Part shown: positions 34,731 through 60,484 of the stretch, piece after piece
Numbering within the stretch: the first letter of the stretch is position 1
How the letters are laid out: each line of letters begins with the position of its first letter
NCBI GenBank assembly: GCA_017654855.1
Contig: CM030337.1
Span: 1,364,001-1,428,000 of the forward strand
DNA length: 64,000 bases
Reading direction: 5' to 3'
Source of the DNA: Podospora anserina
Lineage: Eukaryota
Notes under the pieces: model-generated
Seen by the model: the letters and a program-made list of their open reading frames with translations, nothing else
The model's database searches: none
What the model was told of the DNA's origin: nothing
Translations under genes and position numbers: made by a program

Positions 34731-35023
34731 GCGTGACCCTACTTATATTTAGGTCCCCTTATACCTTTTATCTTTATAGTGTAATGAGTAGTATGTCGAC
34801 TATTACGTTAAAGGTATAGGTTCGATTTTTATTAAGGTTCTTCGGTATTAAGGTTTATATTTATAAACCTCGGTATTAATCTTTTTATTTATTTAGGTAG
34901 TTAAAATATATTTATAATTTCTACGAATTATTTATAATCGGGTATTTTAATTAATTAACTAAATACTTTAATTAACCTTTATTAAACTATAAATCTAGTA
35001 TTTCTTTTATATTATATTCCTTT

Positions 35024-36437: not shown

Positions 36438-36805
36438 TGTCACGGACCTGATATAAGTGGGGAGCGCGGAGCGCGATCGTCTAACCACTGAAACGGAAAA
36501 GTGGGGAAGTCGGATTATCACTAGTGCCAAAGGTAATAATCACGATTATTATTAGCTTTCGATAAACGACGAATAATAATTAATATTATTACTAGTAATA
36601 ATAGTGATAAACCGGTCTATATATACGGAGGAACTGGCTAGTGTAAATAGATAGTTCTATAGTATATAATTTAGTTTATATTTACGGTATTTAATATTTA
36701 TATTAAAATATTTTATTGTATACTATTTAACTGTACCGAACTAATTATTAAAAGTTATTTTTAATTAGTATCTCTTTTAGAGGTTCTATATAGAAGTTCG
36801 TTATA
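36438..36805 (+). repeat. 5' LTR of element B
   Basis: TGTCACGGACC start; TATATATA box; direct repeat of 60117-60484. Confidence 0.88.
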
Positions 36806-41300: not shown

Positions 41301-43827
41301 CGCCGTATAAAGCATTCGCCCTACCAACGTAACTAAGTGTTAATTTAGGCTGCAAGACTCTGGCACGTTCGATTAGGCTATATAGGCCTAGACCTTCTGA
41401 AGAAAACTGCCCTAATTACTAAGGGTATACCCAATTTATAGAAGGTATAGCCTACAGATCTGACCTGTAAGAGCTGTGACGTAACTAAATTACTGCGTAA
41501 ACCTTTTAAAAGGCCTGTAACGGACCTACCGTATACGCTGAGTCGAATAGAAGGGGATATATTTGTAATTCGACCCACCCTACTAAACAGCAGGCCTTAC
41601 GGGCTTATTTTAGTGGACCGTAAAACTCGGTACAAGCTTGTTAGGCTCCTAAAAACTAAGGACGAAGTCGCTATAGAGGCTCGCTCCGCTATAGAGAGCC
41701 TATATAATACTTATAAGCGTCACCCGGCATAATTCTACTACGACGGGGGCAAGGAAATTCGAAAGCTACTGCCCTACCTTACTGAAAAAGGTATAACCTT
41801 TAGTGAGTTTAGCCTATACGCCCACCACCAAAACGGCCTAGCCGAGCGCTCTATTCGGGTAATTTTAGAGCGTTTATAAATTACTATAGTAGCTTCTGGC
41901 CTACTATTTACCCTCTAGTGCTACGTAATTAGCTCTATTATAAATATTATTAACCGTATAGCTACTTCCACTAAGGAATTTACGCCCCACTAGTTATTTC
42001 TTAACGAATTGGTGCCCTTACAGGCCCCTCACGTCCCGGACCTCGGACCTTATAGGGCTATAGGCGCTAAAGTTCTAGTATTTATACCGCCTAAAAAACG
42101 TATTACCGTAAAGAAGCTAGAGCCTAAAGCTACTAAAAGTAAGCTTCTAGCCGTACTAAGTAATAATACTTACTTAGTGTGGCTAGGCCACCGGTAAGTA
42201 ATTTAAACGCTATTCGTTAAACTATATAAAGATTATAGGCTTTATTTAGAAGGACCTATAGTCTCCATATCGTAACTAAGGCTTCTAGAACTGGAAGATA
42301 TTAAGCTTTTAGAAAGGGAACCCCTTATAATTACAGAAGGGGCACTTACTGCAACAGCACCTCCTAGACCTATACTTACGGTAATAGTACTTCTAAAGCT
42401 TACTAATATCGAAGTACTATTTCCGTAAGCTACTAAGCTACAGAAGAAGGAATTCGAAGTGGTAAATAACGATACTATAGATACTACTGCTCTAGTAAAT
42501 TATTTTATTAACCAGGCTACTACAGCTATTACTTACAGCACTACTTCTATTAGCACAGAACCTAGGACCTTTAAACAGGCCCTGAAGCACCCACTAAAGG
42601 ACCAGTAGCTACAGGCTTCCTTTAGTGAACTATAGCAGCTACTGAATTCCAAAACCTTTTACTTTATTAACCGCTCTCAGGCTCCAAAAAGGCCTATTAC
42701 TAACCGATGGGTCTATAAGGCTAAAAAGGACTTATAGGGCTAAATTATTAAATTTAAGGCCCGGCTAGTAGTTAGAGGCTTCTAATAGGTATCCGGAACC
42801 GATTTCACGAAGACCTTTATAGCTACTACGGTACTACCTACCTAGCGGGTTTTACTAGCTATTGCAGCTGAAGAAGACTTAGAAATTAAGTAAATTGATT
42901 TTGTTAGGGCCTTTCTTAACGCTAGTGTGGACTCCGATATATATATGGAAGTCCCTAAAGGCCTATACGAATATAGCCTTAGTAGCTAAACCGCTATAGA
43001 CTTTCTAAAATAATACTGTTAGGACCCTTCGAAGGACTAAGTTATAGTACTAAAAAGGTCCCTATACGGCCTAATAAAGGCCCTACCAGCACCTAAATTC
43101 TAGCGCTTTTTAGAGCTGATGAATTACCGGAAGCCTAGTACTTATAAGGGCCCTACGGCCTAGTAAGTGGGCACCTAATACTCCCACAGAAGGGGTGTTA
43201 ATGTGTGGGTACTACTAAGTGCTTTACTTACTGCCCTACAGATTAATATTACAGTGGGCAGTACTACTATAAGTAGTAATAGAACTTCCCGGCTTAAATC
43301 CCTTTAAAATATTCTTTACAAAGGACCCTTGAAGGCTTATAGAGCTACTGTGGCCTAAGGCTTAGTCAATAGATACTAGAACCTTCTAAAGTGGCTATAG
43401 GCTTACGTAGTAAGTTGCTACAATAGTGTGATTTACAGGGCACCTCTGCTGCCGAAGGTTTTATAAATTTCCGTGAGTCTACACTAGACCCACCTAAGCC
43501 CACCAAATACCCCAAAGTGGTATAGGGGCTTCCAGGGCCTACAGGACCCACAGTAGGCTTACGAAGGCCTATATATAGACCTCTCCTCTCTCCTGTAGAA
43601 TAGTTTTCTTTCTTTCCTTAAGGGCAAAAGCTTAAGGCTAAGGCCAAAGGCTAAGGCCAAGGGTAATAAAGGCAATTCTTATTCCTTATACCTCACTGTA
43701 TCACAGTGCTTTACCTTCCTTCGGCACTGCCGTCGTATCCTCCCGCTTCCGCTTGCGCACTGCTGTATTTTACAGCAACCCTGTATAGGTTCTATATTAT
43801 AGGCCTATCAGGGCTTACCAGCTAACA
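38301..43827 (+). mobile_element. Element C: Ty1/Copia retrotransposon, RIP-mutated, with internal RT/RNase H deletion
   Basis: 632-bp LTRs 38301-38932 and 43196-43827; TSD TAAAT (38296-38300, 43828-43832); PBS GGTTATGAGCCC 38933-38944; PR WLFDTSSTVHIC; LWHVRLG; IN QNGLAER before RT (KFKARLVVRGF, LKRSLYGL); PPT AGAAGGGG. Confidence 0.92.
41089..41270 (+). repeat. 12-bp coding minisatellite (~15 units, ACYAYAGCGCYT) in the copia PR-IN linker
   Basis: Translates as TIAL/TIAP/TTAP repeats in ORF 40635..41336. Confidence 0.85.
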
Positions 43828-44025
43828 TAAATATTATAGTCGAAGGAAAAATAATATTAATTATATTTAATATTATAGATATAGGACTTTCGAAGGATAT
43901 AATCTTAAAGTAATTATAATATAAAAATTATAATTTAAATATCGATTAGAGGGATAATAATTATTTACGATTAAAAGAATTTTAAAAATATTTAATTAAC
44001 GATAAAAGATTAGGCGTACGTATAG

Positions 44026-44388
44026 TGAAATGGTGAGAAAACACACAAAACAACCACAACACCACAAATATACCCTCAACAGGTCTCAGAATGAACACAC
44101 CTGCGTGACAGTGACTCGCTCGCAGGCCGCACTTCACGTAGGACAAAGAAAAGACACTATGGGCTCGCAGGCCACATAATAAGCACCGGATTGGCCTGAT
44201 CAGAGGGCCAGAATTGCCTGCACGCGTGCAAGGCACAAAATACGAAGCAAAGAATAAAAGTCGATGTCCTGTCTAAAATAGAATGTCCGAAGCAGACCGC
44301 TTATATACATGACCCCTGAACCCCTGAGTCCTCTGAGAGCCCCGCTTCCTTACTCATACTCTCAGGCCTGTGGCCGCACCCCAAACCA
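44026..44388 (-). repeat. 3' LTR of element D
   Basis: Direct repeat of 55538-55900; preceded on the minus strand by PPT GAAGGGAGG (44391-44399). Confidence 0.95.
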
Positions 44389-44905
44389 AACCTCCCTTCG
44401 CATTTGACCACTACAAACCAGTGGGCAAATGCGTACACAAGAAAAAAATCCCTTACAAACCAAAAAAAAAAAAAAAAGAAAATATCGTTCAGCAGAAAGA
44501 AGGAAAACGATGTAATCCTGCTATCCCTTTATCCATTCTCCCTTGATCAGAGAGAAGAGCACCCTCACTTCTCGGATCTCAGAGCATACCTCCGTCCCTG
44601 TCGAGCCATCACAACTGGTGACCTAACGACCTCCTCCCTTCGTCTCTGAGGAACTCCAGGAGCCCACTCCCATCCCATGAAACCAGGTGTGTGATCAGGC
44701 GAAAGGTGTGTTGTTGGCGATCCTGAGTGGTCATAAGTAGGGGACGGGCAATTACAGGCCCAGAGAGGAGCGGCGAGTCCATTGTCACAGGAGTGCGGAA
44801 CCCAAAGGGGTTGCTACCCTGCTTGGTCGTTGAGAGTTGCTCGACACGCTACTTGGTCCAAACCCTTCATGATCAGAGGGAAGACCCACGACGCACTCAT
44901 CTCCC

Positions 44906-46087
44906 TCAACAGTAGTAACCAAAGCTAACGGAGAACCAGGGAGGGAAGCAAACCGGGGGAATTGGTGGAGACTTGAAAGGAGACGAGAGGGTGCTTGGCA
45001 GGTTGAATCCTTCCGCGTCCATCAAGTCCTCCAGGCCCCTCCTCCTCCATTTCTTATCACGCACCCTCTGATCAGGCTCACAACCCAAAGACCTTTTCAC
45101 ATAAGCCATCCACAACCTCATCATCTTCTTCCCCGCAACGCCCACGGTCTTGCAGTCTCTGTAGCAACGATCTCCTCTCCAAGCCTTTACTACCGTTAAA
45201 TCCTCCTCTTCACCGTACGAAACACCTCCCTGAAAGTAGGTACGGCAGTGCTCCAAGACCCAAAGACCACATTCCCACGCCCCGCCCTGTTCACCGCAAG
45301 CTGGCCTCCTCACTTTCACGTCAAGGCTGCAGTGGAAAGCGTGACGGATGTAAGATACCAGGCAAGAAATAGCATTAGCTTGATACCCCTTCCAATCCTT
45401 CGACGAGTCCATATAAACCAAAATGCCAGTAGCAACGTCGTAGATGCCCACTGCCCAGTGGCTTCCGTTGTTGACATGAATGGGGAGGACCCAGTATCGT
45501 CGGTCAAAGGCGTTGTGGTTGTCGTTAGGCAGGAAAAAGCGCATCGACGACTTCATCATAACAGGGTTCAGAGGCTCTCCAGGGATCCATATACAACGCT
45601 CGAGGATTCCCTGAAGAGAGTACCGAAGAGCGCAGGTAAGGACCGAGCTAGTGAGCCACTGCTTGGCCTCTAGTTGACCTTGAAGGTCATACATAGCGCA
45701 AGTGAGGGAAGCTACATGGATACCGTAGATGTGAGTCCGATCAGGGGGGGTCGTTATTCTCAAGCCAGGAAAAAGATATTTGATAGTGTCAATCGAAAAC
45801 TGCTCCACGAAAGTGGTGTTGATCCAGTCGGGCCGCCTTCCCACAACATAATCTCCTGGGTCGGCAACCAGGTTAAGGCCAAAACGAACAGGCCAGAGAG
45901 TGTCATCGCCTTGGGGAAGGAAGATGCCGCGCGGGGGACCAGAGCCATAGACCCTGTCGATACCTTGAAGGCGCGCTTTCCGAATAATCTCTTTAACGAG
46001 ATCATTGGGAGGGCCGAATTTCTTGGTGGCGGTGAATTCTTCCCATGACATGTCGTGAATGGACTTTGTAAAAAGCGTTGATGACAT
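44906..46087 (-). CDS. Ulp1/SENP-like cysteine protease (peptidase C48) encoded inside element D
   Basis: WLTSSVL, WVLPIHVNNGSHWAVGIYD (His), VYMDSS (Asp), EQGGAWECGLWVL (oxyanion Gln + catalytic Cys); 393-aa open frame, 3' end may be extended by splicing. Confidence 0.8.
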   Translation of the reverse strand: MSSTLFTKSIHDMSWEEFTATKKFGPPNDLVKEIIRKARLQGIDRVYGSGPPRGIFLPQGDDTLWPVRFGLNLVADPGDYVVGRRPDWINTTFVEQFSIDTIKYLFPGLRITTPPDRTHIYGIHVASLTCAMYDLQGQLEAKQWLTSSVLTCALRYSLQGILERCIWIPGEPLNPVMMKSSMRFFLPNDNHNAFDRRYWVLPIHVNNGSHWAVGIYDVATGILVYMDSSKDWKGYQANAISCLVSYIRHAFHCSLDVKVRRPACGEQGGAWECGLWVLEHCRTYFQGGVSYGEEEDLTVVKAWRGDRCYRDCKTVGVAGKKMMRLWMAYVKRSLGCEPDQRVRDKKWRRRGLEDLMDAEGFNLPSTLSSPFKSPPIPPVCFPPWFSVSFGYYC

Positions 46088-46352
46088 CGTTCTGTGAGAA
46101 TTGAGAGGGAGTAGTGTGTGGTGTGATCTGTGATCAGAGGGTTGTCGAGAGGGAAGTGAGGAATTTTTTTTGGAATGGAGAGTTAAAGAGGGAAGAAGGT
46201 CTTCGGTGAGTCTTTGTTCTCTGTTGTCTGCCTGGCTTGTAAGGCAAGATCATCAGATAGTTGCGTAAGCCGTTTGAGGAGGAAAGAGCGCTCTGATGAG
46301 TCTCCCTCCTGTAGAGGTCTGTAGGACCAGTCGCACCGTCCTATCCTCTGGT

Positions 46353-46360
46353 TATAAATA
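46353..46360 (+). promoter_or_regulatory. TATA box (TATAAATA) in the 342-bp spacer between the divergent accessory genes
   Basis: Canonical TATA 70 bp upstream of ATG 46430, followed by a CT-rich leader. Confidence 0.55.
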
Positions 46361-46429
46361 CCCATGCCAGTTCTCCTCATTCCCGCTCACTCCTCATCTT
46401 TTTCAGTACTTATTAACCGCTTCCTCCCA

Positions 46430-47500
46430 ATGGCCTCTTCTTTGAGGAAACCTGCTGCTTCGTCCGATCAGGCGGTCGACGACCTTACTACCCAGGTATC
46501 CACGACCTCTTTCGCCAAAAAACTTCCCAGTCAGGTCGAGGGAGTCCTTGACCTTACTGCGTACGACTGGTCCGAGGTCGCCATAGACCCTACTCAAGAG
46601 CCTTTGCTTGCTACCCTCACTCATCGTCCCACCGACCTCACCCGTGCTCCCAACAATCAAGGCGTTGCTTACAAGAGGCACGTCTGGGTTCGGCGTCCTA
46701 CTTGCGTTCACGACTCCACCATGCCCAAAGGTGCTAATGCTTATCACGACATTTCTCTCCCCCATCAGGCTGCTCTTTGGTACCTCAAGATTTCCCCTCT
46801 AGATCCCAAACACGTGGCTGCTCCCCTCTACCTTGAGTGGTTCCTCCCTGATCCGACGAAGAAGGGGGGTAAGAAAGAGTGGCAGCTACTTTTCAAGGAC
46901 ATTGGTGCGGACAAGACTATCACTGATTACATCTCCAAGGCGTTGTCGACCGGTTCCGTTAGGCGGATTTTCGTCGAACGGTCCAATGGGTGGTTCTTCG
47001 GGCGCTGGCTCTTCGAAATCGTCAAGCGGGCTCATCGCTCTAAAGGCTTATTTGTCCAGGCCACCGGGTTACTGTAAGTGCCGCCCCCCTGATCAGACTT
47101 AGCCTGACACTAACATGTTGGATTCAGTCATGCCAATCCATGTGATAAGTGCGATCAGAGCTATCGCCGGTCTTTCGTGACGTTCCCCGATGGGACCAAA
47201 ACTAAGGTGATGTGGCCATACTTCGGTTGTGTGGGAAGAGAGGACCTCGATTGGAAATGCGGGAACTGCTGGCATAAGGGTATCCATTACTCATGGTCCA
47301 GTGTTGATGAGGACAGCCCTTACTTCAAGGATCTTGGTAGTGGTGGGTTATCGAAGTTGGATCGTGGTGCCGTGAGCTTGATTCCTGGTGGTAAGGAAGT
47401 CGATTGGGACCAGGAGTGGGAAGAACAGCGGGCTGAGTACAAAGAGCTTAGGAAACAGCAGATGGATAAGAAGAAGGAGAAGAAGAAAGAAAAAGAATAG
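46430..47500 (+). CDS. Spliced antisense accessory gene of element D, 338 aa, Cys-rich DUF3716-like putative Zn/DNA-binding domain and basic tail (exons 46430-47073, 47128-47500)
   Basis: 54-nt intron GTAAGT...ACTAAC...CAG joins the two ORFs in frame: FVQATGLLHANPCDKC...WPYFGCV...KCGNCWHKG. Confidence 0.72.
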
Positions 47501-47748
47501 TCTTCCACTTCCTCAGATCAGAGGAAGGGGCATAAAGAGAGGAGTAAATCGGAAAAAAAAATAACAGGAAAAGAAAAAAAAAAAATTAAAAATTCAATGC
47601 GATAATCTTCACCCCAATCAATCACCTCCCTTAATGTCTTTCCTCCCTTTAAGAACAGACAGCTCCCACAGCTCTGTTCTCACAACACAAGCTTCAGTAC
47701 CCTCTTAAAGAAAAACAACAACTACAACGCCTTCGTCATCGTCTCCCC

Positions 47749-50700
47749 CTAATCACCCAAGAAGTCCTCTGGTCTACCCTTCTTCAGGACCACCTCTATA
47801 CTTTTGCCCTTCTCAAATCTCTTCTGCACCTCAGCATTCTTCCGTTCCATCCAAGTCTTCCCCCTGGTCATCATTCTCCCTGGTGTTTCTTCCACTATCT
47901 CTTCTTCTTCATCCTCATCTTCCACCATATCCACGCCTTCCTTCACTCCATTCCCAGGCACCTGCTCAACTCTCCCTAGTCCTGGCTGCATGTCCGTATC
48001 CTCTTCATCTACATACACGTCTTCCAACCTAAAAAACTTCTTTACCCTGTTTAGCGTATAAGAAGCTCGCAATGGCACCCCATCCAGTGTCTCCAGGAAG
48101 TAGCAAGTGTTGCCTGGTTCGACCTTCCTCACTCTGAAAGGGCCGTCCCAGCGGTACTGTAGCTTCCTTACCACACTCATATCCAACTTTCTATCCATTT
48201 TATACACCAACACCAAGTCCCCCCTTCTGATCATGCTATTCTCAGGCCTAATGCTGCGAATCCCTTTTCTGTTCTTTCTTGCCGCGGCTTTCTGTCTTGC
48301 CATACCAACCCTCTCAGCCACCAGAGTCAGATTCATCTCCTGGGATTTCAATAGTCTCGCCCTTGCCTCTATTAAATCCATAGTCGCTCTCTCCTTCCAG
48401 TGTCTCCCTGATCTGTCGAAGCCAATCTTTTCCCACTGGACGACTCTCCATAACGGTACGTCCTTTTCGATCGGCGTAATGGGGTTAAACCCATGTGCCA
48501 GATAGAAAGCACTGTACCCATAAATACCTCGTGTCGTGGTCCTATCAACAAACAACACATAAGGGAGCCACTGCTTCCACTTCTTCCCCGTCCCATCCGT
48601 CATTTTTGCCAGCATCGATGCAATTGGGATGTGACCAGACTCCGTCACTCCATTTGCTCTTGCGTTGTAAGGTGAGACCACCACCCGAAGAACTCCTAGC
48701 CTCTCTAAAATCTCAGCAGCTTCCTTCCTAAATTCTGATCCGCCGTCCACCACCACGATCAGAGGGTGACCCCATCTAAGGATGATATCGTGCAGGATAA
48801 AGTTCTCAACCCCAGAAGCCTTGCCTGAGCTCAAGACCTTCGCTTCTGGATACCCAGTCAAGTCATCCCTCGCTTCCAGAAGGTAGGCTTTTTCTCCCGA
48901 AGCCGTTGGTAAGAACTGAACGTCTAAATGCCACTTCGCAAATGGAGTAGCTAAAGGCTCAGTATATAAGTGCCAGTCCTCCCAACGCTTCGGGCTCCAT
49001 TGTTGACATTGCCTACATGTCTTGATCCAAGCCTCGACGTCAGCGTACATACCCTTCCAGTAGTAGTTTTCTACTACTCGGGCATAGGTAGCTTCCCGTC
49101 CTTTGTGGCCCATCTCGTTGTGACACGCATTGAAGACTCTTTCCCGCTCGATCAGAGGGTCAACAATTCTCCTAGGGGGAAAGCCTCCTTTATTTAGCTT
49201 AAGAAACAAAACTCCGTCTTCGAGAATCATTTTCAGGGCGTCATTCTTAATGGTCTGAACGTCAAACCTCGTCTTAGCCCTTGGCTCCGCACCAGTCGCG
49301 AGGAACTCGGCGATAGCATGGGAGTAAGGAGACCACAGTCCATTCAAGTAGGGGCCTTGCCCAATAACTTCCTTTTTCTTCTTCCTGATATTCACCCGCC
49401 AGACACTTACTTCCTGGATATCGTTCTTCCAGATCCTTGCGTCAACCTCATCATCAATGTCTGGCTCTAACTCCTTCTCCCTCAGATCAGAGGGGCCAGG
49501 TGGCTTTCTCGATAGTGCGTCTGCCACAAGGTTCTTACTCCCAGGGATGTGAACAATTGTGAAGTCGAAAAGTCTAATCCATCCCAGCCATCTCATCATC
49601 AAGGCGCCGGGAACGTCACTAGCCGCCCCCTGGACTTGGTGGACTACCACTTGAGCGTCCGTTTCCACCGTAAAGTATACCCCGAAAAGATACCTTCTAA
49701 ATCTCCTCAAAGTATACAACAGTCCTCTCAACTCCCTCTTGGTGGCATCATACCTCTGTTCAGCCGGGCTCCAAATACCACTCTCAAACCGACAAGGGTA
49801 CCGTTTTCCATCAGGTCCTACTTATTCAATCACCGCTCCCCACCCCGTCAAGCTTGCATCAAAAATAACAAAGATTCTACCGAAACGGTCGTCATCAAAC
49901 GTCAGAGAAGCCAGACACGGTGCCTCTATAATCAAAAAGGCAAGCCACTCCATCGCACCCTGTTAAGCTTCCGTCCATTCCCATCTCGTGTCCTTCCTCA
50001 TCAAGAAATACAGCGGAACTGCAATCAGATTGAAGAGAGGTACCCATAGCCGATAGTAACCGGTGATCCCCAGGAAGGCGCGAACATCCTTAAGACTGTG
50101 GCAAGTTCGCCATTCCCTTATCTTCACTATCTTTGTCTGATCAGGGAGGCGCCCGTCCGGTGTACAGGAATAGCCAAGGATAACAGCTTCCCGTCTGCAC
50201 CAAAGGGATTTCACGGCTGCAATTGTGGCTCCTGCAAGCTCACAGTTAAGCAAGACTGCGTCGATATTCTTCAAGTGCTCCAGGACCCACTTCCTAACTC
50301 CTGGCCTTTCTTCTTCACCATTGTAGTCCCACCTTGGCCCTTTCACTGCGATATCGTCCAGGTATGGCCGACACACCTGTGGGATAAGATCTTGAAAGAC
50401 TCTGGTCACGGCTCTTTGGAACTGGGCCACTGAGTTGGTAGCTCCTTGAGGTAGGGTACACATCCTGAATAGGCCGATAGGTGTCGCGAAGGTAGTGAGG
50501 TCTCGGCTCGTCAGGGCTAATTTGACTTAGTCGTATCCGGAGAAGAAGTCAAGCAAGGAGGTAATAAGGCACCCTGCAAAGTCCTCGCTGAACTCCTCAG
50601 TGCTTGGTGGGATAAAGGCATCTCGTTGCGTAACCTTATTGTATCTCTGGGCATCGTTGATCAGACGGAGGCCACCATCCTTTTTCTTTACTAGGAACCA

Positions 50701-53700
50701 GTTATTGCGGTAGGGACCATGCGCTTCCTCAATAATATTTCTCTTGATTCGTTCCCTAAGGAGATCGATGACTTTCCCCACGAGTGGCTTCGGGATCGGA
50801 ATAGACTTGCTTTGCCACGCTTTGTGAGGGATAGTCCTAATATGTTGAGCAGGGAAGACTTCTTCAAGGATCTGTCCACACTCGGTGAAGTCCCATGCCA
50901 GTGCAGCCTCCCTTGCGAATAAGATTGCCGTAAACACTTTAACCTCCTGATCTATCAAAATGTCGGTGGTTTGTCTGATCAGATCGGCTAAGCGTTCTGG
51001 AGTGAGGCGTGACCCTCTAATCATTTCAGAAAACTTAGGGACCACAATATCGTCGAATTCTGAGCCGTATTGTAGGGATTCCTTAACTGCCGCCCATCTC
51101 CTTACTTTCCAGTTCGGATCTCCTTCAGGAGTGCTACCATCTGACCCAGCATTATCAACCGGCTTCACCTTCTTATCTACCCTCTTGTACATCGTAGCAG
51201 TAGTAACAATATCCGCAGGCGTTGGCCAGGCCTGTTCAAAAGTAGTGATCAGGCTGGTCTTCATATTGTTTTTCTTCTCAGAAGGGGGCGGAGGTGGATG
51301 ACGTCTATGTGGTTGTGTAGTGAAGAGGCTGCGCTAACCTGGTTGAGTGAGGGACCAGTTAAATATCCCCAAGCATAAGGATGCCATATCGGGCTTAAAT
51401 GGGGTTATCCTGCTAGTCCTCTGATCAGACGGCGGCGATGTCTTTAGCAGTGGTGGCGACGGTACTAAATGCAGACCTGTTATGAAGGTCGGTGGTGGCG
51501 GTCGTTCTTTCCCTGAGATTTCGTCCGAAGTTAGAGTTCTTGTCGTAATTTCCACTCTTCCAGGCTGAAACAAAGACTTCTCTTTCTGGCAGTCCCTTAT
51601 ACCTCCCTTCTTTCCTTCCCTCTGATCACTAATATTCTTTCCTCCCTTGCTCCTAACATCCCCCTTTTCTTTGTTTTTATAAGAAATAATATCAGACGCC
51701 AGGCAATAATTTAATAACGGCAAACTTGACTCCCCCAAAATAAAATTAAGCAAAGAACGCCCAGCTCCTTCATTCAGTCCCCCAATCACTTCATCCCCTT
51801 CCTCCAGCTCCTCCGTTACCCACTCAGGGACAGGTACTCCTTCATTAACCAATCCCTTAAACACCTGTAAGGGTCAGCTGGCAGGAGAGGCATTACCTCG
51901 ATCCCTGCCGTTATATTCCGCCTTCATCTTATCAATCACCTCCTTTTTTACCACGTGGGCCTTAATCAGCTTTCCCCCATACAACATATTCGCGCTAATC
52001 ATACAGCCCTTCATAAAATCAAGGGTGAGGCTCGTATCCGTGAAGAACGGGATGCCCAATAGCAGGTCATGGAAACCCAGAGCCTCAGTGTTATCAATAA
52101 CGAAGAAATAACACAAAATTGGAACCCCAGCCAGCACTACTGGAGCCTGAGTCTCACCTATAAACGCAACCGGATCTCCATGAAGGCCTTTAGACTGTAG
52201 GTTCGTCGACACCATCGGTAGACAGAACCTCTCAGCTACAGCCCTACTGATCAGGTTGCACTCCGAGCCTGTGTCCAACATTGCCAGCACCTTCTCTGAA
52301 GTTGGTGAGACGAAGTTACAATATAGCGATGGGACGTTATGGGTTCGAGTGACGGCTCCCAGGAGAGTTCGCTCACTACCGGAAAGCCGGCCAATGGGCG
52401 TAGACAGCAGAGTCCGCAATCGCTCTTCTGGGCTGTCACCCGGTTGGACCTTGCCTTCGATGATCTTCTCCCAGATGCCTCCCTCGACCACACCATACTC
52501 ACCATCCGCCGTAATCCCGTACAAAGCAGGGACAGTCTTCCTCTGATCAGACGGAGGAGTCTTACTGTGTCCAGCCGTCTGAAAATTCGTCCGAACCGTT
52601 AACGGCAAGGCCTCCCCCTTCTGTGGGACTTCTCTCTTTCCATCCGGGGTACTCTTGGAAGATCCACGCCACTCGATCACCTCAGCATCCTCGGCCACAC
52701 TCTTCACGTAATCCATCAACCGGTAAACAAATGTGGGTGAAACCCTACAATGCTCTTCCAGTGTGAACTTAGTCTGACCACAGGCGTACTTTTTGGCTTT
52801 CTCGGCAATATAATCCCCAGAGTCCTCTGCCTCACCATCAGGCAACCTTGAGCCACTCCGGACTCCATCCCCCTGATCGGACGAGACTCCCTCCTCAACT
52901 ACCTTTGGCTTCTCTTACGCGGGGGTGAGTACCACTTTCGGATTTTCGGCTGAGGCTGGGTCATCCATATCCTCTTTCGGCAGATCCTCGATCCTTACTC
53001 TCTTCGCTCCTTGCGCGCCTACCCCCACTTCCACCTCTTGGTTGCAGACGACCACTGGGGCATCATCAGAGCGCTTCAGAATGCTCCTAGGCGACCACTT
53101 CTCTGCTGAGCAACGTTGCAAGGCATTCCTAGTAATGTAGTCACTGGCTGAGTTCTCGTTAAACGGTACGTAGGGTTTGGAGTACCCATGAAGCCTGTTT
53201 AACCTAACATCCATAGCCCTGGCCATCTGAGTAGCTGTCTGCTCCCTCCCTCTGATCAGAGAGACCTCGGGCCTATATCCCTTGCCCTCACGAGCTTCCC
53301 AGTGCTCAGCCCATTTCGTGTAAGCTTCATAGGCCCTATTCAGTTCTGGTTTCAACGAAATTGCAGCACGAACCAGGTCGCCAACCTTCCCTTCACGCTG
53401 CGCCTTCCTCACATCCTCTTGATCAAGCCACGCTTTTTCACTCTCCGGCCACTCCTTCTTACCGATACACACTCTGCCTCCTTCAGTATAGCACAGTCCC
53501 CACGCCTCATCATACTCCTTCTTCGGACACTCCGTCGACTTAGCGTAATGGCCAGTCTTGCCGCACCAGAAGCACCTTCTTAGTGGGGGAGGGCTATCGC
53601 GGTACTGCCCCCCTAATCTTCCGAACTGGGTTTTAGTATCAACAATGGGGAAGGTATTAAAAGACGAATCCATTTCCCCATTAGGGCCAATGCCAAAATC

Positions 53701-54957
53701 CAGGGAGTAAGGTGCCTGGTCTTCTAGGTGTTGAACGCGGGTCCTCATTATCCCAGATTTGCCGTTTCCCGGTGCAGAGAAACCACCGTAGATATTCGCC
53801 CTCAAATGCTGCAGTGCCATCTCTCTGTCTACCATAGCGTTAACCGCCATATACTGGTCGAGCACCTCGGCCGCCTGATCAGAGGCAGCAGGGGAGGGTG
53901 CAATGGTTGATTTGTCCTCCTTGTAGATTCTTCCTCCCACGTCATACCCATCTTCGATCACATCATTAATCCAATCGCTCCAGGTAATAAAATTCATGGA
54001 TCTTAAACGACGTTCGGATCCTCCTCGGTTGATAAGGGTCATCCTCATTAACTCGGAGAATTTCATCCAAAAGCGGCTGGCAACCCTGGCTCTTACTGCC
54101 TCTTTCTCCCCGGTCGGCACTCGAGAGAGCAGTTTAGAGTGGTCAAAAACAACCTTCCTTAACTCGCCCACACCTTCAGGGATAACCTTGGCGTAGAAGT
54201 CATCCAACTCCCTGTGGATATCTTCGTCTTGTCGGGGGTCATAGATCTTAAAGAGGCGTTTAAGGCGGACAACCAGGACAGGCCAAGTATCGGTGGGTGT
54301 AGGTAGGTCTACACATTCGTCAATCTGTTTTCCCACATCGAAGTCACACCAGGATTTGAACTTGCGAACGCGAGAGGTAAATTCCACGACATGGTACTCT
54401 TCACAGGCATTCTCGAAACGCTCCAGATATTCCGTAAAGTGCTTCCCTTTGAAGTTGCTCTTAAAACCGACTTTCTTCGGATCAGGGAATTCACGCTGAG
54501 GAAAATACATAGGCACCATGGGATAGGGGGTTGGATGATCAGACGTAGGGGACCCCTGGAAGTGGCGATAGTCGGGGTAAGCTCCTATGGGATATGGGTA
54601 TCCGGGTTGCTGGAATTGATGCGCGAACCCAGGAAGAGGAGCGGGATATCCGGCATGCCGAGTGGGAGGCGCAGTATGATTCCAAGCAGCAGGATTTGGG
54701 TGGGTACGAGGTCCACCTGGCACGTCAGGAGCGTTGGGCCTTGCAGTCGGGCCACCTTGATCAGAAAGGGGGCGAGGGGTCTCAGCATCTTCAGGGTGAG
54801 CGCGGTTCGCAGCCGGGGAGAGGACGAATGGTGATGATTCCGGGGACCTGGCCGCCGGAATGGCCACTTCTACCACGGAACGAGCCGTAGGAGCTTGATA
54901 CCCCTGGTTGTCGCCGGGAAGGCTAGCCGAAGCGATGGGTGGGACATTGTCGGACAT
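47749..54957 (-). pseudogene. gag-pol of element D: one reading frame (~2400 codons) with six in-frame stops
   Basis: Zn knuckle CFWCGKTGH...C; PR MLDTGS; RT LDFFSGYD, LPQG, YLDD; RH FDAS, ETDA, ADALSR; IN H..H..CRQC, HLD, VDGG, NGVTE, WDGPF; no chromodomain; all consecutive ORFs share one frame. Confidence 0.88.
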
Positions 54958-55518
54958 GTCGATACTCGATGATTGCTGTTGCGTTTGCGTTGGTGGTATG
55001 GCTTTTTCCTTGTGTATGTTGTTGGAAATATGAAGACGGTTGTCCCTTGCAACTCCAGTATGTGGGCATGAGTTACATCTACCCAGATCAGAGGGAAAGT
55101 GTCCTCGTCTCCTTGCTTTTGGGTTCCCGATGTCCTGAGTCAAACTGACCCGGAAATCCCCACGATTGTCCACCATCGCTAAACAACACACCAGGAGGAT
55201 TCCTCCTAACCAAAGATAGGAGAGGACTTTGATAGTTGACGCGGAGATAAGGTCCACTAACGAGCTAGTCTCAACCAATGCTCTTAGTTCACTTCCCGGT
55301 CCCATCCGGACCACACACTTGACTCTCCACTCGCGGGCAGAAAGTTTAGAGTTTGGTCGATGATGAAAGAGCTTTATCCGATCAGACGGAGAAGAATCGT
55401 TTCCGTTGAACCTCGCGGGGTTCAGTGAAGTTGTCGGTGCTTGTTGTCGTTCGTGGCTTCGCACTTCCTCCAGTACCCAGGGCTTGTGAGTCCAGTTTGG
55501 ACCCTGAGCTTTGCTCAA

Positions 55519-55535
55519 CCCGGGCACGACCTCCA
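55519..55535 (-). promoter_or_regulatory. Primer-binding site of element D, complementary to a tRNA 3' end (tRNA-Gln-like)
   Basis: Minus strand TGGAGGTCGTGCCCGGG begins 2 nt after the 5' LTR; complement CCCGGGCACGACCT-CCA. Confidence 0.75.
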
Positions 55536-55537
55536 TT

Positions 55538-55900
55538 TGAAATGGTGAGAAAACACACAAAACAACCACAACACCACAAATATACCCTCAACAGGTCTCA
55601 GAATGAACACACCTGCGTGACAGTGACTCGCTCGCAGGCCGCACTTCACGTAGGACAAAGAAAAGACACTATGGGCTCGCAGGCCACATAATAAGCACCG
55701 GATTGGCCTGATCAGAGGGCCAGAATTGCCTGCACGCGTGCAAGGCACAAAATACGAAGCAAAGAATAAAAGTCGATGTCCTGTCTAAAATAGAATGTCC
55801 GAAGCAGACCGCTTATATACATGACCCCTGAACCCCTGAGTCCTCTGAGAGCCCCGCTTCCTTACTCATACTCTCAGGCCTGTGGCCGCACCCCAAACCA
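55538..55900 (-). repeat. 5' LTR of element D
   Basis: Direct repeat of 44026-44388; TATATAA on the minus strand ~55813-55819. Confidence 0.95.
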
Positions 55901-58900
55901 ATAGAGTAAAGTATAGGATAAATACCCTCTACGGTATTACTATAAGGAACCTAAAAAGTAATAGTATATTTTATTAATATAGGTAGTAAGATCGAAGAAG
56001 TAGGGTTAATAACGTTAATAGAGATATCGGAGGTTAATAAATATATTTATTATAATAATATAAAGAAAAGCGAGAAAAAAGCGGTACCGGTAAAATATTA
56101 AAGATATTTAACTTTTACGGTTAAATATTTAAAGGGACTTTTAGAGCGAGGACCGTAAAACTATAAAATTAAATTAAAAAAAGGAATTAAGTTACGGCTA
56201 TTTAAAATTTATTATACTAATAATAAATAAAGTAAAGAATTATAAAAATATTTAAATAAAAATTTAAAGAAAAGATATATTAAGGAATCTATATTACTAG
56301 TAAAATACCTTATATTTTTTATACCGAAGAAAAACGGTAATTTATAATTATATATAGATTATTATTAATTAAATAACGAAACGGTAAAAAATAGTTATTT
56401 ATTACCGTTAATATTTAAATTACGGAGTTAATTAATAGGAGCGTAATACTTTATATATTTAAATATATTTATCGGATACGTTTATATATAAATTAAGAAA
56501 GGAAATAAATAAAAAATAGCGTTTTATATATTTTATAATTATTTTAAGTATCTCGTAATACTATTCGGGCTAATTAATATACCTATAACGTTCTAATCTC
56601 TCGTTAATTATATAATCCGGAAATACTTTAATAAAATAGTAATATACTATTTTAATAACGTTTTTATTTATTTATATACTTTAAAAAAGTATAAGCGATA
56701 CGTATAAAAGATACTTAATACACTATACAGAGCCAGACTTTTAATTAATAAAGAGAAAAGTAAGTTTTATATATAAAAAATAATATATTTAAAATATTTA
56801 ATATTATTAAAAGAGGTTCGTATAAAACTTAAGAAAATTACGGTAGTTAAGGATTAATTTATACTATAATTATAGATATATATTAAAGAATTTTTAAAGT
56901 TTATAAATTTCTACCGGATATTTATTCGAGGGTATATAGGTATTACGTAATTATTTAATTATTTAATTAAAAAGGATGTAGAGTTCCGGTAAGAGTAGGA
57001 AGAAAAGTAGGCCTTTTAGGAGCTAAAAGAAATTATTTTAAAGGACTTAGTATTTAAATTATTAAACTTTAATCGACTATTTAAAGTCGAGGCGGATATA
57101 TTAGACTATACGATCGGTGGACAATTAGGGTAGCGAGACGACGACGGTAAGCTATACCCGGTAGCCTTCTTTTCGAAGAAGCTCGAAGGGGTACGTTAAA
57201 ACTATTTAATTTATAATAAAAAGTTATTTACTATTATTAAAATATTCGAGGAATAAAGGTTATACTTTAATAATATTAAATATAAAATATAGGTTTATAT
57301 AGATTATAAGAATTTACGGTACTTTATTATTACGAAGGTCTTTAACGTATAGTAAATACGATAGTTAGAGTTTTTTTCGGAATTTAATTTTTAAATTAAT
57401 TATAAAAAGGGTTCGGAAAATATTAAAATAAATATATTTAATTAGCGGGCCGATTACTATAAAAATATATTTAGGGAGTTACTATTATTATTTAAGGAAG
57501 CGCTAAACGGTATTTTTAAGTATTTACTATAGTTATAAATAAAGTATTATATAATATATTATAAAAAAGTTATTTCTAATAAATATTAAAGGAAGTTAAG
57601 TAACGATATTACGGAATAATATTAATAGGAAAAGTTAAAGCTATAAAGTATTTAAAAAAAATAATTAGGGAAGATTATAATATAAAAGTCGAGCGTATAT
57701 AATACTAGGTAATAGAATAATATTAATAATAGAGATTTACGGATCGAAGTTCGGAGGATATATAGGTATCGTAAAGATTATAGAAAAAATTAAGTAGTAT
57801 TTTAATTAACTAAGGATTAAAAATAACGTTAAGGAAATTTTTTAATTATATTATATATACGAAAAAACAAGGGTTACGAAGTATAAGCTTTATAGATTTC
57901 TAAAGTTATTATTAATAGTAAAATAATTATAAAGTTTAATTATGATATATTTTATTATTAAATTATTAAAGTTTAAAAATATAGTAATTAACGTTAAGTA
58001 TAATAATATATTAATAGTAATTAATAAGTTTATTAAATAAATATACTTTTTACTTTATAAAGAGATTTAGTTAGTAAAGTAATTAACGGATATAGTATTA
58101 TAGTATATTATATTAATATATATATAATTAAAAGAATTTATTACGGACCGCGATATTAAATTCGTATTAAAGTTTTAAAGAACGTTAATAACGAGGCTAA
58201 GGGTAATAAGTAAAGCGTTTTCGGTTTATTATTTTTAGACGGACGGTTAAACGGAACGGTTTAATTAAATTATAAAATAATATTTACGGAATTATATTAA
58301 TTTCGAGTAGGATAATTAAGTTAAATTATTATTTATAATATAATTAATATATAATATATTATTAATTAAAACGATTAAAATTATATTATTTTTCGTAAAT
58401 TTTAAATATAAAATAAATTTATAATAGGGACCTAGCGTTAAAGTACTTAGGGCTAAAGTTAAAATAAATAAATTATATATATTTTACGGTAAATTTAAAT
58501 AAAAACTAAAGTTTATAAGGGAAAAGATACAGAAATATTATAATACTAAAAAGCTTAAGGGATCTTACTTTAAGGGGGGGGATATAATATTCTTTTTTAT
58601 ATATAATTTACGTATTAAAAAACTTAATAAGAAGCTAGACTATAGGAAAGTAAGTTTATTTAAGGTTAAAAGGAAGATCTTAAAAACGGTATTTAAATTA
58701 AAGCTACCTACTACGATACGTTTACGGTTATATACATTTTATATCTTACTTTTAAAACCTATATTATTAGTAAATAAAATTAATATATAAATAGTGGCGG
58801 AGAACGAAAAAAAAGAGTATGATATAGAAAAGATATTGGATTTACGGTTTAATAAAGGTTAATTAAAGTATTTAGTTAGTTAGTTAAAATATCCGGTTAT

Positions 58901-59299
58901 AAATAATTTATAAAAGTTAAAAATAAATTTTAATTATTTAAATAAGTAAAAAGAATTTTATTAGTAATACCTAGACCGATTAAAATTTAAATAAAAATCG
59001 AACCCGTACCTTCGACGTAACGGTCGACATATTATATATTATACTATTAAATTAGTAAGTATAAAGGAATCTAAACTTAATTAATACTATACATTTTTAT
59101 TACTATAAAACAAAGAGGTACTACCGGTAATAAAAAGGGAGATTTATATTTAAATTTACGGAAAAATATTTATAAATCTAAATACGGAAGAACCTCGACG
59201 GGAATCGAATTTATATTTTTAACGTAATAATTAGTGTACTATATACTATACTACGAGGTTAGAAAGTATAAAGAGACCTAAATATAAATAGTACTGTAC

Positions 59300-59995
59300 G
59301 TTTTAATTATTTTAGGAAATAAAAAGCGTACTATTAATAATACTTTACAGAGTTAAGAAGGAAGGACCGGCTATACTAAAGTTTAAAGGAAGGTCGGAAA
59401 GCTAGTTGAAGCTTAAGGAAGGATTTAGAAAAAAAAAGTCGGAAGGATCCGAGGGAGTAAAGTTAAAAGAAGAAGCGTTATTAGACGACGGGATAATTAG
59501 CGCGGCCTACATAATTTCTTTTTATTCGATACGTTCGGTAACTTCTAACTCGTTAAAAAAAGAGAGGCCGCGGGCGACTATAACGGCTCCTTTATCTATA
59601 AGAAACTTACGTTAACGACGGACCTACGATAAACGAACTAAAGCTTTAAAAAGTTTTTATTAATATTCGATTAAAAAAGTTTTAATATATTTCTTTTTTT
59701 ATTAAAAATAATATTACTTTCGTATAATTTTATTTATTAAAAAAAGATTAATAAAGAAGAAGAAAGAGGTAACGGGAGACTTATATAATAAGATAGGGAT
59801 ACCGGTACCGTTATATAAACGACTATAATATACGTAAGCTTTATAACGCTTTACTTTATTTATTATATAATAGGATAACCCTTATAAGTTATACTACGAG
59901 TAAAGTATAACGAAGAAATTATTTTTAATAATATTTTAAACGAATTTAATATAGTATTATATAAATAACGATAGAGGTTTTACTATAGATATAAT
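59300..59995 (-). pseudogene. RIP-inactivated antisense Zn2Cys6-like accessory gene of element B
   Basis: Inverted homolog of 34040-34730; TAT/TAC codons fall at CX2CX6CX8CX2CX6C spacing; boundaries approximate. Confidence 0.55.
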
Positions 59996-60116
59996 ATTAA
60001 TTAGATTATTAAAAGATAAAAAGAAAGATTTATAAAAAAAAAAAGGGAAAATAAGAAAAGCGTATATAGTTAATAAAATTAGGCTAACGGGACGTTAATT
60101 TGGAGGAGGAATATTA

Positions 60117-60484
60117 TATTACGGACCTAATATAAGTAGGGAGCGCGGGGCGTAACCGTTTAATTATTAGAATAGAAAAGTAGGGAAGTCGGATTATTAT
60201 TAGTGTTAAAGGTAATAATTACGATTATTATTAATTTTCGATAAATAACGAATAATAATCGATATTATTACTAGTAATAATAATAATAAACCGGTCTATA
60301 TATACGGAGGAACTAACTAATATAAATAAATAATTCCGTAATATATAATTTAATTTATATTTACAGTATTTAGTATTTATATTAAAATATTTTATTATAT
60401 ATTATTTAGTTACACCGAACTAATTGTTAGAAGTTACCTTTAATTAGTATCCCTTTTAGAGGTTCTGTATAGGGGTTCGTTACA
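60117..60484 (+). repeat. 3' LTR of element B
   Basis: Follows the PPT; direct repeat of 36438-36805. Confidence 0.88.

Follow-up and report, generated by a model that had tools for sequence, protein, structure and literature searches.

Within the window, a 64,000-nucleotide stretch of Podospora anserina DNA, positions 44026-55900 are a single Ty3/gypsy copy that lies on the minus strand, is lightly RIP-mutated, and is now non-autonomous. Its two minus-strand LTRs of 363 bp each (3' LTR, 44026..44388; 5' LTR, 55538..55900) were identical at 364 of 364 compared positions, the first mismatch being at offset 364. On the sense strand the LTR ends are TG...CA, and the target-site duplication ATAG forms a 4-bp direct repeat adjoining both element ends (left, 44022..44025; right, 55901..55904). 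The earlier description of an LTR element with intact boundaries was borne out. A single CTGATCAG site lies in the 3' LTR, at 44196. By sequence reading, the polypurine-tract-like GCGAAGGGAGGT (44390..44401, minus strand) adjoins the 3' LTR, PPT-like GAAGGGAGG being directly beside this LTR, and the primer-binding-site-like TGGAGGTCGTGCCCGGG (55519..55535, minus strand; TGG...) lies 2 nt inside from the 5' LTR. A gag-like ORF (52915..55536, minus strand; 873 aa from ATG) contains a zinc-knuckle-like CX2CX4H motif and ends in a TAA that is in frame with pol. The pol region (47749..52914, minus strand), which encodes protease, RT, RNase H, and integrase as judged by Pfam matches, is interrupted by five internal stops with first bases at 51876, 51336, 50529, 49965, and 49824.

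The 3.36-kb accessory region between pol and the 3' LTR (44389-47748) carries ORFs on both strands, and the pair of divergent genes described earlier for this interval, one C48-like (44906-46087, minus strand) and one Cys-rich (46430-47500, plus strand), was found there by ORF and Pfam analyses. Between them lies a putative divergent promoter region (46088..46429) with TATAAATA at about 46353 and a motif site at 46132; the Cys-rich gene would have its own promoter on the strand opposite to pol. The C48/Ulp1-like cysteine protease gene is in the same sense as gag-pol and forms a 393-aa ORF in the window. Its match to Pfam Peptidase_C48 (PF02902) was weak (E=0.0015, 18.8 bits, under the 20.7-bit cut-off), while alignment to yeast Ulp1 (1EUV) revealed that the His, Asp, Gln, and Cys residues are retained. 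The sole close database match was a P. anserina protein named for a ubiquitin-like protease domain. In other copies the C48 protein is 562 aa long (P0001, approximately 44565-46250) and is 100% identical to the window protein across 96% of the query; the gene in the window differs from these copies by one-base indels at 44501, 44739, 44806, 44955, and 46164. Enzymes of the C48 family also process NEDD8, not SUMO alone. We assume that SUMO is the substrate of the element protease, with NEDD8, ubiquitin, and a polyprotein as alternatives; according to an extract of PMC4640811, the C48 enzymes of NeSL and Utopia elements are thought of as polyprotein proteases.

The product of the antisense Cys-rich gene was identified, by homology, as a predicted DUF3716-family protein. 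Exon 1 (46430..47073) and exon 2 (47128..47500), which encodes the Cys-rich part, are separated by a 54-nt intron (47074..47127; GTAAGT...CTAAC...CAG) that contains a CTGATCAG site and appeared as an exact insertion against 15 aligned homologues. Thirty-three homologues were found with E<=1e-3, several of them covering both exons, and those with names belonged to Sordariales. PF12511 was matched by 11 of the 16 members scanned, the window protein itself being under the Pfam cut-off. The full-length protein was modeled with pLDDT 72 and pTM 0.71, and the domain-only model was poor (pLDDT 56). A Foldseek search of the full-length model against PDB and BFVD returned no match with E<1; the predicted fold would thus resemble no solved DNA binder, and nothing in the model marks a DNA-binding role.

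The composition of the element (GC 0.507, TpA/ApT 0.79) is clearly distinct from that of its flanks (GC 0.355 and 0.212; TpA/ApT 1.67 and 1.35), in agreement with the earlier description of a GC-rich element inside RIPed DNA, but the copy is not pristine. Comparison with contigs from four other runs gave 65-75 places at which the window has A and the others have G, and 26 of the 35 such places listed are preceded by T, which is the RIP context. In this copy six internal stops interrupt the single gag-pol frame, and the terminal TAG of pol at 47751 is also an A>G place. Damaging changes hit both accessory genes: in exon 2 of the DUF3716 gene, the window has Tyr at a position where homologues have a conserved Cys, and the A at 47289 is G in other copies. 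Given 65 RIP-type changes, protection from RIP is not evident in the window copy. In run X11 the LTR depth was approximately 95x the internal depth while the interior was seemingly single-copy, and the element family is therefore not proliferating freely.

We compared three independent elements, namely the window element and L003 and L008, which are diverged elements from metagenomes (L001 and L002 are the same element as L003). Although pol identity to the window was only 46% (L003) and 54% (L008), both relatives have the layout C48(-)/DUF3716(+)/pol(-), with the same order and orientation as in the window. Their C48 proteins scored above the 20.7-bit Pfam cut-off (33.8 bits for L003 and 26.5 bits for L008), and the three element proteins agree in all four catalytic residues (His, Asp, Gln, and Cys). 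The Cys pattern of DUF3716 is likewise conserved in all three at 25-28% identity, and the L008 gene is interrupted by an intron at the corresponding position, so that introns are present in two of the three elements. Purifying selection on both accessory genes is evident: the frames stay open at 25-28% identity, with unchanged catalytic residues and a conserved intron position. The expected co-occurrence of a C48 gene, a Cys-rich gene, and an enriched motif was observed in both relatives checked. The element lineage carries a conserved accessory module consisting of a C48 gene, an opposite-strand DUF3716 gene, and a palindromic GATC-core word.

GATCAG/CTGATC occurs 47 times in the element (11,875 bp) and 18 times in the remaining 52.1 kb of the window. 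In Markov simulations of orders 1-3 (300 runs each), the means for the element were 8.0, 9.0, and 14.0 and the maxima were 18, 21, and 28. The claim that one short motif covers the element therefore held in number, with 47 occurrences against 8-14 expected, but GATCAG is only part of a longer palindrome, yCTGATCAGr, within the partly palindromic full word yCCyCTGATCAGRSGGa. The flanks of the motif are often pyrimidine-rich on the 5' side and purine-rich on the 3' side. The 36 GATC-core sites (44196..55715; 11 exact CTGATCAG, 18 GATCAG only, and 7 CTGATC only) have a median spacing of 327 bp and occur in the LTR, intergenic DNA, the intron, and coding regions of both strands. The density of GATCRG half-sites was 4.55 per kb in the window element versus 0.61 elsewhere in the window, and 9.22 per kb in L003 versus 0.77 in its 1.3-kb flank. 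L003 has 89 GATCAG (16.0 expected) and L008 has 39 GATCGG (10.6 expected), and the motif counts were above those of every Markov simulation (200-300 runs). The dinucleotide after GATC is AG 89 times and GG 23 times in L003, and GG 39, GA 24, and AG 17 times in L008, whose word variant is yCCGATCGGr. The shift of the preferred L008 half-site to GATCGG is family-specific, as the anti-silencing model predicts. Motif and protein, however, do not clearly vary together: AG is the half-site of both the window and L003, yet exon 2 of the window DUF3716 gene is nearer to L008 (37.5% identity) than to L003 (27%).

The motif is under selection as a nucleotide sequence. Of the 19 Leu-Ile pairs of L003, 14 are spelled CTGATC (5.8 expected), and of its 24 Asp-Gln pairs, 17 are spelled GATCAG (4.4 expected); in L008 Pro-Ile is encoded as CCGATC in 9 of 15 (2.3 expected); the dipeptides themselves are also skewed toward the motif word. 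In pol, only 6 of 22, 5 of 22, and 4 of 26 sites fell at homologous columns (1.0-1.6 expected), so that density and spacing are kept while most sites move. Spacing in the window was more even than chance (CV 0.55 versus 0.96; none of 20,000 random placements was as even, and P=5e-05 in a second test), and in the three elements the CV was 0.53-0.61 versus 0.96 for random placement (P<=0.0012). The sites of L003 have a period of 170 bp (R=0.478, N=63; P<0.0005 against a uniform null and P=0.0145 by gap shuffling), with 171 and 169 bp and similar phase in its halves. For L008, with sites defined after the data were seen as GATC followed by GG, AG, or GA, the period was 176 bp (R=0.459, N=59, P=0.0005; 176 and 178 bp in the halves). 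Periodicity in the window element was non-significant in a scan-wide test (best period 320 bp, P=0.117), and 176 bp fits its left half only (R=0.70). Thus, the sites of L003 and L008, the two intact elements, form a phase-coherent lattice of approximately 170-176 bp that is kept by codon choice, and across the elements sites recur roughly once every 170-176 bp or at a multiple thereof. Nucleosomes in Neurospora repeat at approximately 170 bp. The period points to chromatin.

Taking these results together, the C48 protease, the DUF3716 protein, and the nucleosome-spaced word suggest a self-encoded chromatin system. The best explanation as a whole, which we put forward tentatively and hold to be somewhat short of probable, is that a DUF3716-bound lattice holds the protease on element chromatin and counters silencing in cis. 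The sites would act as double-stranded DNA, and the palindromic word fits a dimeric binder of such DNA. This binder would be encoded by the element, the DUF3716 protein being the likeliest candidate, and would occupy about one site per nucleosome repeat and tether the C48 isopeptidase to the chromatin of the element; there, the isopeptidase may strip SUMO, or NEDD8, from the silencing machinery. The element would consequently be guarded, in cis, against heterochromatin, DNA methylation, or RIP. The anti-silencing model proposed earlier for this element is partly supported, by the co-occurrence of the three parts and by the motif shift.

The lattice may instead be read by a host DNA-binding factor, the integrase, or Gag, with the accessory genes acting independently of it; the protease, for example, could process element proteins or modulate SUMO-dependent nuclear entry or integration. 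We consider this possible but rather unlikely. The link between DUF3716 and DNA has no support from fold or family, the window and L003 have one motif in common with DUF3716 proteins only about 27% identical, and extracts of PMC2836005 and PMC4640811 propose roles for transposon C48 domains in transposition or polyprotein processing. However, the three parts travel together in three of three elements, and short contigs that carry DUF3716 outside a gypsy context are hardly enriched (in L006, 3 half-sites versus 2.9 expected). Moreover, the records of L001 (the L003 element) and L008 have the same sample prefix and different half-sites, which element-specific readers explain more easily, although a metagenome may hold several hosts.

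A module that restrains or targets the element, in which the lattice and its binder set a special chromatin state tuned by the protease, seems improbable. Such a state could involve control of copy number, heterochromatin or centromere association, or nucleosome phasing that favors integration or transcription. The period of the lattice and the single-copy interior would agree with it, as would the varying centromere enrichment among Podospora Ty3 families described in an extract of bioRxiv 10.64898/2025.12.02.690432. The sequence itself does not tell repression by the module from de-repression. Deconjugating isopeptidases are, however, more often linked to the removal of SUMO-dependent silencing. 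It is still less probable that the motif acts in RNA, where palindromic CUGAUCAG words would fold into hairpins or pair between molecules to allow dimerization or Gag packaging. The word is self-complementary, its flanks give hairpin potential, and the half-sites have some strand bias in the window (18 versus 7) and L008 (21 versus 8), but this bias is reversed in L003 (14 versus 23), sites are found equally in the upstream region of the LTR and in the antisense gene with its intron, and an RNA role gives no evident reason for a 170-176-bp lattice that stays in phase over 12 kb. The least credible reading, already disfavored, is that no system exists, the genes having been captured as passengers and the motif having arisen as a by-product of composition or mutation. 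Despite the damage to both window genes, open frames and key residues persist in three elements, the motif counts exceed the simulations, codon-pair and dipeptide use is skewed toward the word, and the spacing is not random.

The closest parallel is the VANDAL/VANC system of Arabidopsis, in which, according to extracts of PMC5735166, an accessory protein encoded by the transposon has as its counterpart a short motif that is enriched specifically in the cognate element, differs between related families, and matters by its density. VANDALs are class II Mutator-like elements, whereas the present element is an LTR retrotransposon encoding C48 and DUF3716 proteins; VANC binding and hypomethylation were experimentally demonstrated, whereas the present module is described from sequence; and VANDAL motifs are non-palindromic, of one orientation, and located in non-coding tandem repeats, being rare in exons (extracts of PMC5735166). 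The word here, in contrast, is palindromic and runs through coding sequence in a lattice of about 170 bp. KAONASHI-type Mutator-like elements carry Ulp1/C48 domains. In extracts of PMC2836005 and PMC4640811, Mutator-like elements, Ginger1, NeSL, and Utopia similarly encode C48 proteases, but these are DNA transposons or non-LTR elements with the protease usually fused to the transposase or ORF, and the same extracts are silent on LTR retrotransposons encoding C48, on any DUF3716 partner, and on dispersed motifs. REP9 of Zymoseptoria tritici, an IS3EU-like class II element, produces DUF3716 proteins from two of its four genes; it belongs to another transposon class, and the extract of PMC8232023 mentions no C48 gene or motif analysis. 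DUF3716 thus recurs as an accessory domain of transposons, in window-type gypsy elements and in REP9.

The Ty3/gypsy families crapaud, grenouille, yeti, and xenopus are from the same host complex and superfamily as the window element. According to an extract of PMC10787394, grenouille exists mainly as solo LTRs and full copies are very few, a pattern that fits the high LTR depth and single-copy interior seen here. In contrast, crapaud is drawn, in the extract describing it, with gag and pol only and has LTRs of about 400 bp, which account for about 11% of the element. Alpha-satellite arrays likewise contain a short protein-binding word, the CENP-B box, that recurs at nucleosome-scale periodicity; its period comes from tandem 171-bp monomers, whereas here the word is superimposed on unique coding DNA by codon choice.

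The stretch from 44026 to 55900 of the window is a minus-strand Ty3/gypsy LTR retrotransposon. Its LTRs (44026-44389 and 55538-55901) are identical at 364/364 positions, or 363 bp long if the TG...CA ends on the minus strand are used, and by sequence reading a 4-bp target-site duplication, ATAG, abuts both LTR outer ends. LTR identity, the TG...CA ends and this duplication confirmed the boundaries given in the original prediction. Also by sequence reading, a PBS-like TGGAGGTCGTGCC begins 2 nt inside the 5' LTR and a PPT-like GAAGGGAGG adjoins the 3' LTR. A single long minus-strand frame (55536 to 47749) encodes a zinc-knuckle-like gag followed by aspartic protease, RT, RNase H and integrase, and the Pfam matches of pol are, in order, Asp_protease_2 (weak), RVT_1 (1.3e-13), RT_RNaseH (7.8e-11) and Integrase_H2C2 (2.4e-19). 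The gag is unusually long (873 aa), which brings the element to nearly 12 kb, and about 180 aa between protease and RT (51334-51873, minus strand) carry no recognisable domain. Podospora Ty3 families have been named crapaud, grenouille, yeti and xenopus, and accessory genes are absent from the parts of two sources that describe them (PMC10787394; 2025 bioRxiv preprint).

The window copy is lightly RIPed and no longer autonomous, its gag-pol frame being interrupted internally by six in-frame stop codons (TAA four times, TGA and TAG once each). The element had been described as GC-rich inside RIPed DNA; this held relative to its surroundings, with a GC content of 0.50-0.54 across 44-56 kb vs 0.19-0.44 in the AT-rich neighbouring stretches and RIP indices of 0.79 and 1.15 vs 1.35-1.67 and 0.07-0.48 in the flanks, but the light RIP and the stops in gag-pol show that the element itself has not escaped. 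An 11.2-11.5-kb contig of the same element was present in each of four public sequencing runs (X11, X15, X17, and X19). These contigs differ from the window at 76-138 places per run, mainly as A>G on the plus strand (75 places in X11 and 65 in each of the other three runs), and 26 of the 35 A>G places among those listed are preceded by T, against a background of 17%. A change from CpA to TpA is the signature of RIP, and the T-preceded places correspond to exactly this change on the minus strand, thus pointing to RIP. Among the differences listed, which extend to 50248, at least three stop codons read G elsewhere, namely two internal ones (49824 and 49965) and the one that ends pol (47751). Programmed readthrough of the in-frame stops was rejected because the listed stops read G in other copies and lie in RIP context. 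In X11 the LTR depth was about 95 times the interior depth, so that the family would consist mostly of solo LTRs plus a single full copy. Runs that had been guessed to be RNA yielded 11.5-kb unspliced contigs at a depth like that of the flanks, with no spliced joint, and from these contigs the runs are probably DNA. The flanks of the window copy (33000-44025 and 55901-62000) are heavily RIPed, with TpA/ApT of 1.67 and 1.35 and GC of 0.355 and 0.212, and neither tblastn nor blastn found relics of the element family in them. In the partly RIPed left flank, at 41054-41305, a 12-nt unit (TACTATAGCGCT-like) is tandemly repeated about 20 times.

Two genes in divergent orientation occupy the 3.36 kb that separate pol from the 3' LTR, as had been predicted. 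They are a C48-like gene in the sense orientation and a plus-strand gene of the DUF3716 family. The C48/Ulp1-like ORF (44906-46087, minus strand) matches Pfam PF02902 at 18.8 bits, below the gathering score of 20.7. Its sole close match is a 562-aa P. anserina protein (P0001), the UniRef name of which includes a ubiquitin-like protease family profile domain and which likewise stays below 20.7 with 17.9 bits. Five one-base indels between 44501 and 46164 set the window apart from all four runs, and these indels account for the 562-aa form in other copies. The window ORF aligns to yeast Ulp1 (1EUV) over the SHWA, DS, and Q...CG motifs, and its orthologues in two diverged relatives of the element, the metagenome loci L003 and L008, exceed the 20.7-bit cut-off with 33.8 and 26.5 bits, respectively. 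Pairwise identity among the three element C48 proteins is 25-28%, and the catalytic His, Asp, and Cys and the oxyanion Gln (H265, D282, C328, and Q322 of P0001) are invariant in 3/3. The C48 protein is a putative isopeptidase whose substrate is assumed to be SUMO or NEDD8. A word-indexed search for further C48 relatives, with a single sequence or a three-sequence profile (E<=1e-5), returned only the P. anserina protein itself. The window-family and L003 proteins also have in common a C-terminal stretch, RPP..TYDH..SP..HLSPDH..G..GW (about residues 500-545 of P0001; tail of L003 242-1927, minus strand), which lies far from the catalytic domain and may be a docking motif.

The second gene (plus strand, ATG at 46430, end at 47500) is preceded by a TATA box (about 46353) and interrupted by a 54-nt intron (47074-47127) with canonical fungal GTAAGT, CTAAC, and AG signals. 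With the protein query read through the intron as X, a HMMER search against 1.84 billion representatives gave 33 relatives at E<=1e-3, several of which cover both exons, and all aligned homologues lack exactly the intron stretch; exon 1 alone as the query matched nothing but itself. Named relatives come from the Sordariales Cladorrhinum and Chaetomidium. Pfam DUF3716 (PF12511) was matched by 11 of the 16 scanned family members (best E 6.1e-9) and by the L003 protein at 36.1 bits (cut-off 22), and the window protein itself gave no match to PF12511 at E<=1. The pattern PC..C ... PFF.C.S ... C.NC ... C is invariant in the family alignment A3, and the window protein keeps five of the six conserved Cys residues, the sixth being Tyr through an A at 47289 that is G in other copies. 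Judged by these sequence comparisons, what had been called a Cys-rich protein is a DUF3716-family protein. We know of no function for DUF3716. A search of the ESM Atlas with exon 2 found nothing at 0.9 or above, and one with P0004, a further protein from this analysis, reached DUF3716 clusters at 0.88-0.89, which we take as a lead only. P0003, a Logan-derived protein of 130 aa, shares 82% identity with exon 2 and differs by RIP-like changes (Pro to Leu, Ser to Phe, and Arg to Trp/Cys), implying that additional RIPed copies of this gene are present in some strain that has been sequenced. Two DUF3716 genes are also reported, in the part of the source that describes it, for REP9, a class II transposon of Zymoseptoria tritici (PMC8232023).

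When metagenome contigs were scanned with the DUF3716 alignment, 35 pattern matches led to eight loci; L001 and L002 are the same element as L003, and L008 is separate. The layout of the window element recurs in both relatives. L003 has C48 at 239-1927 (minus), DUF3716 at 2540-3343 (plus), and pol at 3934-7983 (minus; 46% identical to the window pol), and L008 has them at 259-2295 (minus), 2601-3626 (plus), and 4296-8201 (minus; 54% identical), with gag-protease beyond pol and every frame open in both. An LTR fragment of L003 (1-127 equals 11919-12045) sets the end of that element at 12045. The predicted co-occurrence of C48 gene, Cys-rich gene, and motif was thus upheld, since L003 and L008 keep the GATC-core enrichment together with the layout. 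L004-L006 are too short or lack C48. The C48/DUF3716 pair may also exist outside lattice-bearing elements, as the 1.6-kb locus L007 has a C48-like fragment (2-145) divergent from a DUF3716 gene (955-1637; E=0.001) and three GATCRG half-sites vs 1.6 expected. In IMG/VR neither the DUF3716 alignment nor the pol alignment picked up relatives.

The word GATCAG/CTGATC occurs 47 times in the window element vs 18 times in the remaining 52 kb, and Markov-type simulations keeping up to the tetranucleotide content of the element produced at most 28 hits. Sites lie in the LTR, both accessory genes, the intron, intergenic DNA, and all along gag-pol, which agrees with the end-to-end cover first described. 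The word extends to yCCyCTGATCAGRSGGa at 36 sites, of which 11 are the exact palindrome CTGATCAG; 18 sites have the right half only and seven the left half only. In L003, GATCAG/CTGATC occurs 89 times (simulated mean 16.0, maximum 28), and half-sites GATCRG number 9.22 per kb in the element and 0.77 in the 1.3-kb flank. The top hexamer of L008 is GATCGG/CCGATC, with 39 occurrences (simulated mean 10.6, maximum 19). GATC is followed by GG 39, GA 24, and AG 17 times in L008 and by AG 89 and GG 23 times in L003; L008 therefore prefers GATCGG/GATCGA and the window element and L003 prefer GATCAG, one shift among three elements with overlapping preferences. An intron interrupts the DUF3716 genes of the window and of L008 (about 3171-3224 in the latter) at the same codon position and in both contains a motif copy; the L003 gene has lost it. 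In the window copy at least one site has been lost to RIP: 47749 reads CTAATCAC, where the A at 47751 is G elsewhere, and the same change destroys CTGATC. This RIP-type G>A change created the pol stop (site 47749-47756), and other copies with G would extend pol by 8 codons.

The motif is selected as DNA, at the nucleotide level. Leu-Ile is written as CTGATC in 14 of 19 cases in L003 (5.8 expected from codon use) and Asp-Gln as GATCAG in 17 of 24 (4.4 expected), both dipeptides being about twice as common as amino-acid frequencies predict, and Pro-Ile in L008 is CCGATC in 9 of 15 (2.3 expected). The GC profile around the sites is flat. Sites at shared columns of the pol alignment amount to 6/22, 5/22, and 4/26, above the 1.0-1.6 expected yet a minority of the sites; individual sites turn over, and density and spacing persist. 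A role as a plus-strand priming site was rejected because of the palindromic form of the motif and because the arm rich in purines lies on the wrong strand.

The spacing is far more even than chance. The coefficient of variation of the gaps in the window element is 0.55 vs 0.96 by chance, and 0 of 20,000 random placements were as even (median gap 327 bp). The 63 sites of L003 have a median gap of 178 bp and pairwise-distance peaks at about 160, 330, 500, 670, 850, and 1030 bp. Their periodogram peaks at 170 bp with R=0.478, a value reached by 0 of 2,000 uniform placements and by 1.45% of gap shuffles, and the two halves of the element, taken separately, have periods of 171 bp (phase 226 degrees) and 169 bp (phase 202 degrees). 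For L008 the peak is at 176 bp (R=0.459, P=0.0005; halves 176 and 178 bp), a weaker replicate since the definition of its sites, GATC plus GG, AG, or GA, was chosen post hoc; with the narrow GATCGG definition its periodicity is not significant (N=34, P=0.19). The best period of the window element, 320 bp, is not significant scan-wide (P=0.117), and the left half of that element, which is less RIPed, fits a period of 176 bp (R=0.70). Our interpretation is a lattice with a site roughly every 170-176 bp, fully occupied in L003 and at about every second position in the window element. In Neurospora, nucleosomes repeat about every 170 bp. As far as our searches show, a nucleosome-scale, phase-coherent lattice over protein-coding DNA is undescribed for any transposon.

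Taking these results together, three parts are conserved together, the motif is selected, and its spacing is even and, in two elements, phase-coherent. A palindromic word would suit a dimeric reader of double-stranded DNA, and a nucleosome-scale lattice would point to chromatin. The DUF3716 protein is the candidate reader, as the only element-encoded protein without an assigned job. Its gene would have an antisense promoter of its own for expression from the integrated copy, and the intron would be preserved because the genomic RNA is the opposite strand. The adjacent C48 isopeptidase would then free silencing factors on the element of SUMO or NEDD8. We put forward this whole chain, a DUF3716 reader on the lattice together with C48 removing SUMO/NEDD8, as a tentative reading that falls somewhat short of probable. 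The fuller version, in which one site per nucleosome forms an address code through the whole element, its coding regions too, and the element itself encodes a reader, a DUF3716 dimer with a fold not assigned before, and the C48 effector, which together keep every nucleosome free of SUMO-/cullin-dependent heterochromatin, DNA methylation, and RIP, is more doubtful; if true, it would amount to a counter-defence that acts in cis, is addressed by sequence, and has half-sites specific to each element.

Alternatively, the motif may be read by another protein, host-encoded or the integrase, with the accessory genes acting independently, which we consider rather unlikely. DNA binding by the DUF3716 protein is unsupported by its predicted structure: the full-length model has a confident core (pTM 0.71; 105 residues with pLDDT >=90) and Foldseek found no match at E<1 in PDB and BFVD, and the domain-only model reached a pLDDT of 56.5. 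It is improbable that the module restrains or targets the element instead of de-silencing it. A role of the motif at the RNA level is still less probable, being weakened by a strand bias that is reversed in L003 and by the lattice. That the accessory genes are passengers and the motif a compositional accident is very improbable, given the conservation and the outcome of every control.

To our knowledge, self-encoded sequence-specific anti-silencing has so far been established only for plant VANDAL elements. As for VANC, the motif is enriched in the cognate element and rare elsewhere. VANC/VANDAL is the nearest concept, sharing an element-specific motif and an element-encoded protein, a likeness claimed at the functional level only, whereas the transposon class, the proteins, and the motif architecture differ; VANDAL motifs are non-coding tandem repeats in one orientation (PMC5735166). 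The portions of two sources that treat C48 domains place them in Mutator-like, Ginger1, NeSL, and Utopia elements (PMC2836005, PMC4640811). Our literature searches found no C48 in LTR retrotransposons and no prior description of a system of C48, DUF3716, and the CTGATCAG motif, and the survey 'LTR Retrotransposons in Fungi' never mentions Ulp1, C48, or SUMO. The proposed reading bears on the persistence of transposons in fungi that have RIP, DNA methylation, and H3K9 heterochromatin, and the element is a compact candidate, open to testing in a fungal genetic model and consisting of two small genes and a defined 8-10-bp word. If true, it would give a function to a widespread fungal domain, DUF3716, and explain the recurrence of Ulp1-type proteases in unrelated transposon classes; the lattice itself calls for explanation even if the anti-silencing reading is wrong. 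The L001 and L008 records share a sample prefix and differ in half-sites and GC (0.59 vs 0.545), which, if the two share a host, would argue for element-specific readers.
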